Assembly (NCBI RefSeq): GCF_013315695.1
Contig: NZ_CP054353.1
Reading direction: 5' to 3' (one strand)
Length of the DNA: 64,000 nt
DNA from: Escherichia coli
GTDB taxonomy: Bacteria > Pseudomonadota > Gammaproteobacteria > Enterobacterales > Enterobacteriaceae
The position numbers are program-made. Positions 48,001-54,000 of the stretch are shown one piece after another. Every line of letters starts with the position of its first letter. Within the stretch, counting starts at the first letter, position 1.

Positions 48001-51000
48001 TTAAAGGCCATCAGGGGCGCGCATTAGGGCGTGACGGCGTGATTGAAGTGACGGTGACAATTCGTGATAACCAACCGGAGAAAGTCACCATTTCTGGCAC
48101 GGCGGTGATTTTGTTTCATGCCGAATGGGCAATTGAACTCTGAAACCGTTGCCTGATGCGCTTCGCTTATCAGGCCTACAACCGGACTAATGTATGCCGG
48201 ATTAGGCATTTACGCCACATCCGGCAACCTGACATAAATTATTTTCCCGCCTCCGGGTGCGTATCAAACGCCGCCATCACCAGCGCTAACTCATCCACAG
48301 TAAAGCCATGTTTCACATCATCCACGCCCAGACCAAACTGTTCCTGCATCACGGCATATAACGACGCCACATCTGGTAGATTTCGCTGCTCAACTGCGTG
48401 CCCATTTTCATAATGGGTAAAATGAAAATTGGTCAGCGTTAGCTTGCCACCGTCCGGCAAATGGCGACACATCAGCAAATGATGGCGAAAATGAGACTGC
48501 GGCCAGTGCGCCGACCAGAAATTGCCCATCACATAATCGCTTTGTTGCTGCTCGCAGAGATCAAAACGGTACATCGACTGCCAGTGCTGATGATGATTAA
48601 ACTGCAACACCCAATCATCACCCTCCTGTAACAACCGATACTCTCCGTGTGGCGTGAACTGCACGAGATCGGGAACTAAACGAATCGGCGCGGTTAGCGT
48701 CTGCCCACCGAAGCCGACATCAGCAATCCATTTTTCCCCTTCCAGTTCCACCAACAGCAAACGATGGGTGCGCGGCGGTAATGCTGGCGGATTTGATAAC
48801 ACTACGCGCCCTAACAAGCTGCGAACGTTAAACCCCAGCTCGCATAACACCCGCTCAAACACGCCATTCTGCTCAAAACAGTAACCGCCACGATGGGCTG
48901 TCACCAGTTTTTCTTCCAGCGATTGATCATCAAGCTGTATTTCCCTCGGCAGCAAAACGTCGAGGTTTTCAAACGGAATAGTGCAATTGTGTTTCAGGTG
49001 CAATGCACGCAGCGTATCAATATTGACCGCAGCAGCTCCCGACCAGTTAATACGGGCAAAATAATGATTCAGAATGGGCGTCATCAGGCGTTTCCCTTAG
49101 TGGTTTTCTCAACTTATAACCTGGAATAGACGCCGCACCGGCTATTTTGTGCGATCGCGGACATGCATCACGTTCGCAAATCGCCAATCCCGTTAATTTC
49201 GTTACTTATTGCGTTACGAGCTACGCTTTTAAAACACCCTTCATAGCGAGGCGATATCGTGAGCCAATTCATTCCCGTCGAATTACACCATGCCAGCCGT
49301 CTGTTAAATCATGGCCCAACTGTCTTGATCACCAGTTTCGATGAGCAATCCCAGCGGCGTAACATTATGGCTGCAGCCTGGTCAATGCCGGTGGAGTTTG
49401 AACCTCCACGCGTCGCGATTGTGGTAGATAAGTCGACATGGACCAGGGAGTTGATTGAGCGTAACGGTAAATTTGGCATCGTTATCCCAGGCGTTGCAGC
49501 GACTAACTGGACGTGGGCAGTGGGAAGTGTATCTGGGCGTGAAGAGGATAAATTTAATTGCTATGGCATTCCGGTGGTGGAAGGTCCGGTGCTTGGTTTG
49601 CCACTTGTTGAAGAGAAATGTCTGGCGTGGATGGAGTGCCGATTGCTACCAGCGACTTCCGCGCAAGAGAAATACGACACGCTGTTTGGCGAAGTGGTAT
49701 CAGCAGCGGCAGACGCACGGGTATTTGTCGAAGGCCGCTGGCAGTTTGATGATGATAAGCTCAATACGTTGCATCATTTAGGCGCTGGCACGTTTGTTAC
49801 CAGCGGCAAGCGTGTTACGGCAGGTTAAGCATTACATGCTGTAACCAGGTTTCTTTATCAGCGTCTCCATTTGGGGCGCAATTTCGGCGTCCCAGATAGC
49901 TTGCCATGATTCTGGTTGAATCTGCTGTAGAGCAATGCTTATCGAACTGTCTTTACTGTTCAGATGGCGAATAATAACGTCGGTAATATCTGCAGCAAGT
50001 GCTGCTTTTTGTTGTTCGTCCAGTTCACGTGGAAAACATTTAATGTCTATGTGCGGCATGATTGTGCTCCTTTTGAAAGATGTCAGTAAAATTAACACAC
50101 GTTGTGAATGTTATGTGTCCGGTGATGCTTTTTTACGGCAATAATGCCTACTTGAATTTGTACAGGTTTGTACTACACCCTTTTAAATAAAGCGCCAACA
50201 AAAACGTCAACTTGCAGAATATATTCTTCGCCAACATGCCATTAAGAAAACATCAAGTTCCCAGCTTGCCAATTTATTAACGCCCATTATAGTTATTCTT
50301 GCCCTCACAAAAATTTTCATCCGTAATTACCCCCAATAAAAGTCCATTCTGGAGACGCTTAAGATGCAGCTTAATCATATTGTTAAAAGTCTGCTAATAA
50401 CGGGATTATTCACCACCAGTTCTTTGCCACTCCTCGCGGCGGAAGCCCCTAAAGACGCCACCGCAGCCACGCAACAAGCAAACAATTTACTCTACAACCA
50501 GTTGCCGTTTTCTGATAACACTGACTTTACTGATGCCCATAAAGGTTTTGTTGCCCCTATCCCTCAAGACGTGATTAAGGGCGAAAAAGGAAATGTTATC
50601 TGGGATCCACAACAATACGCTTTTATTAAAGAAGGTGATAAAGCCCCTGATACGGTGAATCCAAGTTTATGGCGTCAGGCGCAACTGATAAATATCAGCG
50701 GGTTATTCGAAGTAACTGAAGGTGTCTATCAGATTCGCAATCTCGATCTATCAAATATGACCATCATTGAAGGCAAAGAGGGTATTACCATCGTTGATCC
50801 CCTTGTTTCAGCAGAAACAGCCAAAGTGGGTATGGATCTCTATTACAAAAATCGCGACAAAAAACCGGTAGTAGCGGTTATCTACACACACAGTCATGTC
50901 GATCACTACGGTGGTGTTCGCGGCGTAATTGATGAAGCTGACGTTAAATCAGGCAAAGTTAAAATCTACGCGCCAGCCGGTGATGCTGCCAACTTACTGA

Positions 51001-54000
51001 TTTAGTGTATGATGGTGTTTTTGAGGTGCTCCAGTGGCTTCTGTTTCTATCAGCTGTCCCTCCTGTTCAGCTACTGACGGGGTGGTGCGTAACGGCAAAA
51101 GCACCGCCGGACATCAGCGCTATCTCTGCTCTCACTGCCGTAAAACATGGCAACTGCAGTTCACTTACACCGCTTCTCAACCCGGTACGCACCAGAAAAT
51201 CATTGATATGGCCATGAATGGCGTTGGATGCCGGGCAACAGCCCGCATTATGGGCGTTGGCCTCAACACGATTTTACGTCACTTAAAAAACTCAGGCCGC
51301 AGTCGGTAACCTCGCGCATACAGCCGGGCAGTGACGTCATCGTCTGCGCGGAAATGGACGAACAGTGGGGCTATGTCGGGGCTAAATCGCGCCAGCGCTG
51401 GCTGTTTTACGCGTATGACAGGCTCCGGAAGACGGTTGTTGCGCACGTATTCGGTGAACGCACTATGGCGACGCTGGGGCGTCTTATGAGCCTGCTGTCA
51501 CCCTTTGACGTGGTGATATGGATGACGGATGGCTGGCCGCTGTATGAATCCCGCCTGAAGGGAAAGCTGCACGTAATCAGCAAGCGATATACGCAGCGAA
51601 TTGAGCGGCATAACCTGAATCTGAGGCAGCACCTGGCACGGCTGGGACGGAAGTCGCTGTCGTTCTCAAAATCGGTGGAGCTGCATGACAAAGTCATCGG
51701 GCATTATCTGAACATAAAACACTATCAATAAGTTGGAGTCATTACCGAAGCTCTCAATTTATGGGGAGATAAAGCCGAGATTATTCTCGCTCAACATCAC
51801 TGGCCAACCTGGGGCAACGATAACGTGGTCAAACTGCTTAAAAGCCAGCGTGATTTGTATCGTTACATCAATGATCAAACTCTGCGTATGGCAAATCAAG
51901 GGATGACCCGTGATGAAATTGCCGCAAACTTTAAACTGCCCTCTTCACTGGCTAATACCTGGGCGAATCGCGGCTATTACGGTTCGGTAAGTCATGACGT
52001 GAAAGCAACTTACGTGCTTTATCTCGGCTGGTTTGATGGTAACCCCGCGACGCTTGATGAACTGCCGCCAGAAGAAGGCGCAAAAAAATTCGTCGAGTAT
52101 ATGGGCGGTGCTGATGCCATTTTACAGAAAGCCAAACAGGATTATGACCAGGGTAATTTCCGCTGGGTTGCCCAAGTTGTTAGTAAGGTGGTGTTTACCG
52201 ATCCAAACAACCAGGCAGCGAGAAATCTGGAAGCTGATGCGCTTGAGCAGTTAGGCTATCAGGCTGAATCTGGGCCGTGGCGTAATTTCTATCTCACTGG
52301 CGCACAGGAATTGCGTAATGGCGTACAAAAATTACCAACACCAAATACTGCCAGCCCAGACACCGTGCGTGCGATGACGCCGGAGATGTTCTTTGATTAT
52401 CTTGCCGTCCATATTAATGGTGAGAAAGCGGCAGATGCCAAAACCGTGTTGAATTTCGATTTTGGTGAAGATGGCGGCACCTATAAAGTGGAGCTTGAAA
52501 ATGGTGTTCTCAATCATACCGCTGGTGTAGAGGCTTCGGATGCTGATGCCACTATCACTCTGTCTCGTGATGTATTGAACAAAATTGTACTGAAAGAAGA
52601 GACGCTGAAAGAAGCCACGGCCAAAGAAGATGTCAAAATTACTGGCAATGCGGAAAAACTCAACGAGCTGTTAGGTTATATGGATAATTTTGAATTTTGG
52701 TTCAATATAGTGACACCATAAATTTACTGCATACCGGGCAGGTATCCTGCCCTTTTTTGGTTAAAAAATGGCTGAACGAAGAAAAACGCATCACTCATGG
52801 AAAACCCGCCGCGATATGGTTATTCGCGGCATGACGATTAGTTTGCCATGGTTTGCTTTTATCAATGTCAGTTTTGCATTGATAATTTTGCTGCGCCGTG
52901 TTCTGTTTAATGACCTTACTCCACCCTGGTTAAATGAAAAAAGCCTTATACATTCTATTGATATATCTGCAACGGGTATTCTGCTGATTTGCAGTGGTTT
53001 ACTACTCATCCCTCGGCAAAAAACATTACCTATCCAGGTGCTATTAGTTGCCCTGAGCCTGCTATGGTCATGGTGTAGTTATCACTTTATTGCGTACTGG
53101 ACGCTGCAGTTTGCTTATCCACTATGTGTATTATTAATGCTTAGTGGCGTTATCGCACTTTATTTCCATACCCCATCATTGCTCGCATTTGTCATTCCCT
53201 TATGGTTCACCACTCCAATAGCGAGTCTTATGCTTAATCAACAGATCAATATTCATTTTGCTGTTGTATGGTGTATTTTTTCACTGGCGCTATATGGTGG
53301 GCGACTCATTTTGTTACGTTGGTTTGAAGAAGCATGGGTACAAAACAGTTATAACAACCAGTTAATTAATCGCCTTGATGCATTAGCACATCGTGATCCT
53401 TTAACTGGGATAGCAAACCGACGTGCAATGAACAGTATCTTACACGACGCGATAGATAACGGCGGGTCATTTGCTCTTATTATGCTGGATGTCGATTTTT
53501 TTAAACGTTACAACGACACTTACGGGCATCCTGCTGGGGATCGTTGTCTAATACAAGTTGCCGACGCTCTACAGCGTTCAACTCGCCAGTCGGAGGATGT
53601 TGTTGTCCGTTATGGTGGCGAAGAGTTTGTCATCATACTTTTTAATGCAACATTGCCGGAAGCAGAGACGGTAGCAGCCAGAGTGAAGCAAGAACTTAAA
53701 CTGGCAGCTATCCCGCATCAGGCATCTGCTGTTAATGCATTCGTTACGGTTAGTCAGGGGATTACCTGTTCTGCTCCCGCAAAAACGGCTGAACAAATTA
53801 TTTCAGATGCCGACGCTGCGTTATACCGGGCGAAAGAAAGTGGGCGAAATCGATGGGAAAAATAATTAAATGATTCCATTCCTCTTTAGTATCCCTTTTA
53901 GCTTTGGTATCTGACATACAGCATCAGCAATCGCATTGATGTTCGGGGCATTATCCTGAAACCATTCGTGTCCCGGTCCCCATGTGCGCATGGTGCAGAG

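Follow-up and report, generated by a model that had tools for sequence, protein, structure and literature searches.

What became of the alkyl-sulfatase gene that lies in E. coli MSB1_4I in two pieces on either side of an IS1 element, and was its missing middle part lost together with the arrival of the element or only afterwards? The window, i.e., the whole stretch of DNA analysed, comprises 64,000 nucleotides of contig NZ_CP054353.1 (assembly GCF_013315695.1), and a first-pass annotation, made from the raw sequence, had proposed that one of its IS1 copies (copy B) splits a metallo-beta-lactamase (MBL)-fold alkyl sulfatase, with roughly 125 codons of the catalytic domain having been deleted with the insertion.

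The intact allele and its remnants

An intact allele is found in E. coli SMS-3-5 (WP_001176575.1; 1977 nt, 658 codons), and the intact-type alkyl-sulfatase is carried by about 8% of complete E. coli genomes. The gene is accessory in E. coli and, judging by its domains and alignments, encodes a type III alkyl/aryl-sulfatase (MBL-fold, binuclear zinc) of the periplasm. The intact protein has the three-domain layout of the family, with an MBL catalytic domain (PF00753, Lactamase_B, residues 128-226), a dimerisation domain (PF14863, Alkyl_sulf_dimr, 388-526) and an SCP2-like C-terminal domain (PF14864, Alkyl_sulf_C, 534-658), and aligns over its full length to five solved structures of the same family, with E values between 0 and 5e-186 for the end-to-end matches. 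The five are 2CFU (SdsA1, P. aeruginosa), 4NUR (SdsAP, Pseudomonas sp. S9), 2YHE (Pisa1), 4PDX (E. coli YjcS) and 7TL5. When the zinc ligands of SdsAP (PMC5426288) are mapped onto the E. coli protein, every one of them is matched by the intact allele (7/7; HxHxDH plus Glu, Glu and His). The yjcS gene of K-12 occupies a different locus, the window gene being a paralogue situated at pptA-yncG.

The features of the interrupted gene in the window are as follows.

50364..50978, + strand: 5' sulfatase fragment, 615 nt (205 codons), equal to nt 1-615 of the SMS-3-5 gene with 0 mismatches
50978..50979: left deletion junction, gene nt 615 joined to IS1 nt 1
50979..51746, + strand: IS1A copy B, complete, 768 bp, 100% identical to annotated IS1A copies
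50979-51001: IRL of copy B, beginning GGTGATGCTGCCAACTTACTGAT at 50979
51034-51309: insA of copy B, 91 aa
51285-51291: A6C frameshift site of copy B, at IS1 nt 307
Running to 51731: insB' frame of copy B, with the InsAB' fusion frame open (232 aa)
51724-51746: IRR of copy B, the element ending ...GGAGTCATTACC at 51746
51746..51747: right deletion junction, IS1 nt 768 joined to gene nt 1003
51747..52721, + strand: 3' sulfatase fragment, 975 nt (324 codons and a stop), equal to nt 1003-1977 of the SMS-3-5 gene (codons 335-658) with 0 mismatches

Relative to SMS-3-5, the window gene lacks nt 616-1002, that is, 387 bp or 129 codons (G206-N334), and alignment to intact homologues thus places the two fragments 387 bp apart instead of contiguously. 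The internal loss seen by the first-pass annotation is therefore real and does lie within the MBL domain, and the fragments do add up to 529 aa, as opposed to the 658 aa of the intact protein; the proposed size of the loss, on the other hand, has to be corrected from about 125 to 129 codons. Likewise, the N-terminal fragment had been read as ending in ...KIYAPAG, of which A205 is the native end, whereas the terminal G is encoded by a GGT whose first two bases are the GG of IS1.

The 5' fragment retains an N-terminus resembling a signal peptide; of the MBL domain, which is truncated in this allele, it keeps the initial part with the HxHxDH zinc motif (H176, H178, D180 and H181), and the Pfam Lactamase_B match covers residues 128-203 of the fragment. 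Its reading frame runs eight codons into IS1 (GDAANLLI) before a stop at 51003-51005, which makes a junction ORF of 213 aa. In the 3' fragment, which matches both Alkyl_sulf_dimr and Alkyl_sulf_C, the dimerisation and SCP2-like C-terminal domains survive together with H351, the last zinc ligand. The fragment lacks its own start codon at the junction, and the longest ORF within it (298 aa) starts from a GTG at 51825. Five of the seven zinc ligands are thereby kept, while E287 and E306 are deleted, leaving the binuclear site incomplete, and the substrate-pocket residues Y230 and G247 fall within the lost segment as well. Because two zinc ligands and the substrate-pocket residues are gone and the two halves are separated by IS1, the gene is dead, and a functional enzyme can no longer be made from it. 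As its zinc site is incomplete, the window copy is a dead member of the SdsA1/YjcS family, to which the Pfam domains and the five full-length PDB matches assign it, just as had been suggested; set against the type III alkylsulfatases named above, a copy without residues 206-334 and split by IS1 is a pseudogene. The same view is taken by RefSeq/PGAP for MSB1_4I, where the 5' piece is a pseudogene ("MBL fold metallo-hydrolase, missing C-terminus") and so is the 3' piece ("missing N-terminus").

Relocation of the missing 387 bp was considered and rejected, as no 20-mer of the segment was found elsewhere in the window, and neither MSB1_4I nor isolate AF3 is among the 40 listed records that contain the segment at 100% identity, whereas the closest relatives of both do figure there. 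An Rfam scan of positions 49000-54000 returned no RNA family.

IS1 copy B and its flanks

Copy B has the length and the inverted repeats of IS1 (18 of the 23 positions agree between IRL and IRR), and its insA and insB' are joined by a programmed -1 frameshift at the A6C site, with PGAP also labelling it a "programmed frameshift". A simple IS1 insertion produces a 9-bp direct duplication of its target. Copy B is instead flanked by GCGCCAGCC on the left and GAAGCTCTC on the right, which share no duplication, as had been noted in the first reading, and therefore its present context is not that of a simple insertion, its identity as IS1 being unaffected. The left junction carries a 2-nt ambiguity, since the intact gene also continues with GG at this point.

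All three IS1 copies in the window are identical. Copy C is bounded by a perfect 9-bp duplication, GGCATTTAC, and copy A shows the same pattern as copy B, i.e., no duplication and a loss of DNA, in its case 1,809 bp, so that gene loss (of the sulfatase and of dosC/dosP) accompanies two of the three copies.

Junctions among public genomes

Among 5,426 complete genomes, the left junction was found in MSB1_4I only (it also occurs in several further public assemblies), and the right junction in two, being common to MSB1_4I and AF3. At least five assemblies, produced by different projects, contain both junctions together (MSB1_4I, GCA_964055605.1, the NCTC assembly GCA_900448625.1, GCA_000408485.1 and OZ040295.1), and public assemblies have the products of the junction-specific ORFs indexed in 593 and 794 blocks. 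IS elements are frequent sites of misassembly, and an assembler that collapsed two IS1 copies, or a misjoin induced by the repeat, could in principle mimic such an allele; with the same two junctions recurring across projects and blocks in these numbers, however, the probability of an artefact seems negligible.

An unrelated 387-bp deletion that came first, with IS1 landing later exactly at the joint, would call for a positional coincidence and for the 9-bp duplication of an ordinary insertion, which is absent. Moreover, no genome was found to carry the deletion without IS1, because the number of genomes joining both halves of the junction query (438) equals the number holding the missing segment (438). 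Such an order of events is thus considered very improbable.

Some relatives share only one of the two junctions. In AF3 and GCA_000408005.1 the right junction is kept and the left flank falls within a porin gene, 15,144 bp to the left of the window-type endpoint, with another 15.1 kb deleted; in GCA_000461175.1 and OZ039495.1 it is the left junction that is kept, the right flank being a truncated uidB (a rearrangement). One junction is thus fixed and the other endpoint varies among relatives, as is the case for adjacent deletions. The use of AF3 as a guide to the ancestral IS1 end, with the shared right junction as the anchor, was dropped, given that other relatives keep the left junction instead. 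As some relatives retain the right junction and others the left, the window-type allele is probably ancestral to both the AF3-type and the uidB-type ones.

Origin of the allele

The most likely mechanism, in which we place moderate confidence, has two steps: IS1 would first have inserted in the simple manner and would then have promoted an adjacent deletion. An ordinary insertion, at the site of one or other of today's junctions, would have duplicated 9 bp of the gene, after which one end of the resident IS1 would have attacked a nearby site on the same DNA molecule (intramolecular replicative transposition), with the loss of the DNA from that end to the new target and of one copy of the duplication. 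The outcome would be a complete IS1 whose two flanks, though unrelated to each other, remain collinear with the locus as it was; this allele would then have become fixed in a widely sampled clone, within which the same IS1 copy would have seeded further rearrangements on both sides.

What is observed at copy B agrees with this route: an intact IS stands at the joint, the flanks are collinear and the lost DNA was contiguous with the IS. It is further supported by the exact fragment matches on both sides of a clean gap, by a complete IS1 devoid of the target duplication (as opposed to copy C with its perfect 9 bp), by the nonappearance of the missing segment elsewhere in the window and of any IS-free deletion, by the relatives that keep one junction and vary at the other side, and by the same pattern at copy A. 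The retained complete IS, the lack of a target duplication, the contiguity of the lost DNA with one IS end and the variable extents of deletions anchored on one IS junction in relatives are all shared with the classical IS1-promoted adjacent deletions, from which nothing of substance differs here, except that the present case is deduced from comparative genomics. Those classical deletions were reportedly described by Reif and Saedler in 1975 from E. coli genetics, e.g., in the gal region.

Counting against the two-step model is the missing precursor. A junction search in the 5,426 complete genomes recovered no IS1 with its duplication and without the deletion, and five exact look-ups of the ORF products that a precursor would encode (an 8-, 9- or 10-bp duplication from nt 1003; a 9-bp one at nt 607) found none either, which is weak evidence, as such look-ups are sensitive to gene calling and single substitutions. 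An attempt to choose the primary site by target preference (the GC-rich GCGCCAGCC as opposed to the AT-rich surroundings of GAAGCTCTC) was uninformative, because both 9-mers must be IS1 targets under either direction.

Two IS1 copies might instead have inserted as direct repeats, one at nt ~607-615 of the gene and the other at nt ~1003-1011, and homologous, RecA-dependent recombination between them would then have deleted one copy along with the 387 bp. A single intact IS1 between collinear flanks without a shared duplication, exactly as observed, would be left in this case too. The lineage is indeed rich in identical IS1 (at least 40 matching pieces per record, besides the three identical window copies), and the orientation of the uid genes in the uidB-rearranged relatives suggests an inversion between IS1 copies. 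This route, however, needs three events within 400 bp rather than two, and neither the junction searches nor the exact-product look-ups turned up a genome with a single or a double insertion; it is judged unlikely.

A single reaction might also have brought IS1 in and removed the 387 bp at once, e.g., through capture of the IS in a double-strand break or gap or by the IS ends hitting sites 387 bp apart. The lack of a precursor on record would be in keeping with it, and so would the deleted-side DNA at the IRL junctions, which matches the start of IS1 (by 2 nt here and 4 nt in AF3) in a manner fitting a microhomology-assisted joint; a duplication-free IS insertion at the centre of a deletion has, besides, been proposed by Ngan et al. 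(PMC11708052). The same work, which treats IS-adjacent deletions in general, nevertheless provides the precedent for two steps, as all 14 natural IS-plus-deletion cases without a duplication in the long-term evolution experiment (LTEE) consisted of a prior insertion and subsequent adjacent deletions, often growing with time (PMC11708052), and the AF3-type genomes, with a later flanking deletion by the same IS1 copy, indicate that the two-step route operates at this very locus. A one-step origin consequently strikes us as rather doubtful. Transposase-mediated deletion, IS1-IS1 recombination and a one-step event would all be compatible with the sequence alone; as to the wording of the first-pass annotation, "deleted with the insertion", insertion followed by deletion is at least as likely as such a single event.

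Compared with the IS1 start GGTGATG, the deleted-side DNA at the IRL junctions shares four bases (GGTG) in AF3, two (GG) at copy B and a single one at copy A. Whether the IS1-flanking deletions of this clone were directed to sites mimicking the IS end, be it by end-homology-guided target choice or by microhomology-mediated joining, with copy B acting as a recurrent sequence-guided breakpoint, can be entertained only as an improbable idea; were it true, then, given also the rearrangements on both of its sides, copy B would be shaping the genome of a successful clone.

Context of the finding

Pseudogene formation driven by IS elements is a feature of IS1-rich Escherichia/Shigella lineages, which, as here, harbour many identical IS1 copies; in distinction to Shigella, the carrier in this case is a commensal or extraintestinal E. 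coli clone. The loss is an ordinary, already annotated kind of gene decay, with a mechanism and a gene family that were both known before. The case documents the inactivation of an accessory alkyl-sulfatase in a single clone that has been widely sampled, the junctions are convenient clone-specific markers, and the relatives sharing the same IS1 copy with different flanking losses form a natural illustration of how IS-anchored deletions arise. A reading of the raw sequence can evidently spot an IS-linked internal deletion correctly, with little import beyond book-keeping. The remark that this is the second sulfatase-type gene of the window is also accurate, the other one being ydeN, which is cut by the window start; ydeN belongs to an unrelated sulfatase family and is adjoined by ydeM.

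Structure of the Disrupted Sulfatase Gene

The metallo-beta-lactamase (MBL)-type ORF that begins at 50364 reads, at 50979, into GGTGATGCTGCCAACTTACTGAT (ORF table and raw sequence), the 23-mer that is the IS1 left inverted repeat; the window contains it three times (14439 +, 50979 + and 60570 -), shuffles not once. The three IS1 copies, mutually identical within the window, are as follows:

IS1 copies in the window
14439-15206, + strand: IS1 copy A; flanks ...CCACACTTA / GAAGAAGTC..., target duplication absent
50979-51746, + strand: IS1 copy B (IS1A); 768 bp, 100% identity to annotated E. 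coli IS1A copies
59803-60570, - strand: IS1 copy C; between mcbR and pqqU, perfect 9-bp duplication GGCATTTAC

Copy B, whose inverted repeats match at 18 of 23 positions, carries insA, has its A6C slip site at 51285 and is open over 232 aa in the InsAB' frame. Its left (50100-50978) and right (51747-52760) flanks each match about 440 complete E. coli genomes, in which the gene matched by both is annotated as “alkyl/aryl-sulfatase”. The intact gene of E. coli SMS-3-5 (1977 nt, 658 aa, WP_001176575.1), neighboured by pptA on one side and a GGDEF gene on the other, aligns without a single mismatch to window 50364-50978 (gene nt 1-615) and 51747-52721 (gene nt 1003-1977), and the two fragments, separated in SMS-3-5 by 387 bp, lack gene nt 616-1002, i.e., 129 codons (G206-N334).

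The first-pass annotation had proposed, from the sequence alone, that IS1 splits an MBL-fold alkyl sulfatase of the SdsA1/YjcS family with a loss of about 125 codons, leaving a combined 529 aa (indeed 205 + 324) of an expected 650-660 aa, that part of the catalytic domain went with them, that the flanks share no duplication (none is seen between GCGCCAGCC and GAAGCTCTC) and that the gene is inactivated; both observation and interpretation were essentially right. The N-terminal fragment ending it gave, “...KIYAPAG”, stands as an ORF reading, its final G, however, coming from a GG common to both sequences: the truncated ORF seems to end in “...APAG” because the intact gene past the left junction and the IS1 start both go on with GG. 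The element is IS1A, and RefSeq already annotates the locus as pseudogene fragments.

Residues Lost from the Sulfatase

The intact protein (Pfam: Lactamase_B 128-226, Alkyl_sulf_dimr 388-526, Alkyl_sulf_C 534-658) aligns end to end with the type III alkylsulfatase structures 7TL5, 4NUR (SdsAP), 4PDX (YjcS), 2YHE/4AV7 (Pisa1) and 2CFU (SdsA1). When the SdsAP zinc ligands (His192, His194, Asp196, His197, Glu303, Glu322 and His367; PMC5426288) are shifted by the constant alignment offset of 16, the expected residue is found at 7/7 positions of the intact allele, of which the 5' fragment retains H176, H178, D180 and H181, and the 3' fragment H351, whereas E287 and E306 are gone from the window allele, as are the substrate-pocket equivalents Y230 and G247. 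Interrupted by IS1 and deprived of active-site residues, the gene is thus inactivated twice over; it belongs to the type III alkylsulfatases of the SdsA1/YjcS family, but as a dead copy.

Reality and Spread of the Allele

The left junction is present in one of 5,426 complete genomes, that of E. coli MSB1_4I (NZ_LR898874.1; rectal swab, Australia), where PGAP annotates both gene pieces as pseudogenes with an IS1A transposase between them. The right half of the window (32001-64000) is the reverse complement of this record with only five SNPs in 32 kb (36826, 40111, 41951, 45320 and 49848), all within 36.8-49.8 kb and none within the disrupted locus; at 49848, GCA_964055605.1, which is identical to the window over 6.6 kb, has the same base as the window. 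Probably, then, the window derives from a different member of the clone that carries this allele, or the five differences are private changes or errors of MSB1_4I. Both junction 60-mers occur in at least five assemblies from separate projects (MSB1_4I, GCA_964055605.1, GCA_900448625.1, GCA_000408485.1 and OZ040295.1), which rules out an assembly artefact, and exact-sequence look-ups of junction-specific ORF products in public assemblies placed the 213-aa product (the 5' fragment with its tail encoded by IS1) in 593 blocks and the 298-aa ORF lying within the 3' fragment in 794; the allele is, therefore, real, and it is fixed in a widely sampled clone.

The missing 387 bp were not found in the rest of the window. 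A 100% identical copy is carried by 40 records, including MS 21-1, OZ546925 and OZ546911, the closest intact relatives of the clone, and MSB1_4I and AF3 (NZ_OZ547117.1; UK blood culture) are not among them. A query for an IS-free deletion, with both flanks fused without IS1, found both halves in one place in 438 genomes, each of the matches listed being two pieces spanning 787 bp, i.e., the intact arrangement; as the missing segment is likewise held by 438 genomes, no genome has the deletion without IS1.

Origin of the Deletion

IS-promoted adjacent deletion has been known as a class of event since the 1970s, and the pattern at copy B is its textbook signature. Copy C, whose duplication serves as an internal control for the one absent at copy B, is a simple insertion, and is not present in AF3, being therefore a more recent gain. 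In the long-term evolution experiment, 14/14 IS-plus-deletion events without a duplication were traced to an earlier insertion followed by adjacent deletions, which often enlarged over time (PMC11708052). Given this signature and precedent, we favour, with some reservation, a simple IS1 insertion into the sulfatase gene, after which one IS1 end would have transposed intramolecularly. The precursor allele was not found in complete genomes by junction search, nor were its expected ORFs in five exact-product look-ups. With the precursor missing, two less likely routes to the same loss keep some weight, at about the same level: recombination involving a pair of IS1 copies with 387 bp between them, and one-step insertion with deletion.

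Rearrangements Anchored on IS1 Copies

AF3 and GCA_000408005.1 have the same IS1 (AF3 record positions 8500-9267) and the same right junction (window equivalent 51747), with a left flank corresponding to window 35834, within a porin gene; an extra 15,144 bp has been lost to the left of IS1, a stretch that begins at the 3' end of the porin gene, takes in the LRR genes, narU, narZ/narH/narW/narI, yddE, nhoA, yddH and pptA, and includes the 5' sulfatase fragment. In GCA_000461175.1 and OZ039495.1, the left junction is retained and a truncated uidB and uidA, in opposite orientation, lie to the right of IS1, and the 3' sulfatase fragment in such clone members adjoins ydgA and a truncated uidC-like gene; the orientation suggests that IS1 mediated an inversion of roughly 160 kb, in which some DNA was lost. 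Copy B has therefore given rise to rearrangements more than once, to its left as well as to its right, and both kinds of derivative descend from the window-type allele. Copy A behaves likewise, without a duplication and with adjoining DNA lost: 1,809 bp is missing relative to MS 21-1 (the whole of dosC, a diguanylate cyclase gene, 147 nt from the start of dosP, and 255 bp between genes), and, as AF3 shares this arrangement, the clone must have inherited the loss from its ancestor.

The first IS1 bases, GGTGATG, recur in the DNA originally following the left junctions, over 1 nt at 14438/14439, 2 nt at 50978/50979 and 4 nt at window 35834 in AF3, where the deleted side starts, like IS1, with GGTG. 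This likeness, noted post hoc at three junctions only, may be due to chance or to an IS1 preference for end-like targets; IS1 reportedly prefers targets resembling its own ends.

Other Disruptions of the Gene and Its Neighbours

In an unrelated strain (CP049609.1, 806-2911), the same sulfatase gene carries an independent 2,106-bp insertion with IS903-type ends GGCTTTGTTGAATAAATCG and a 9-bp duplication CTCAATTTA (gene nt 1009-1017), just 6 bp away from the right junction of copy B. The gene has been inactivated more than once, and the AT-rich spot near the right junction may be a preferred IS target. The MASE5-GGDEF neighbour is interrupted in one clone member (OZ040295.1, ~4600-5800; window equivalent ~53387) by an IS5-type element (DDE_Tnp_1/DUF772), and an internal stop divides yncG (glutathione S-transferase family; 53866-54483, -) into two ORFs, the gene being a pseudogene per PGAP in both MSB1_4I and AF3. 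Farther off, according to RefSeq for the matching record, two fragmentary leucine-rich-repeat (LRR) pseudogenes (36139-37024) adjoin an intact LRR gene, and the window ends in a truncated ortT toxin gene (63947-64000).
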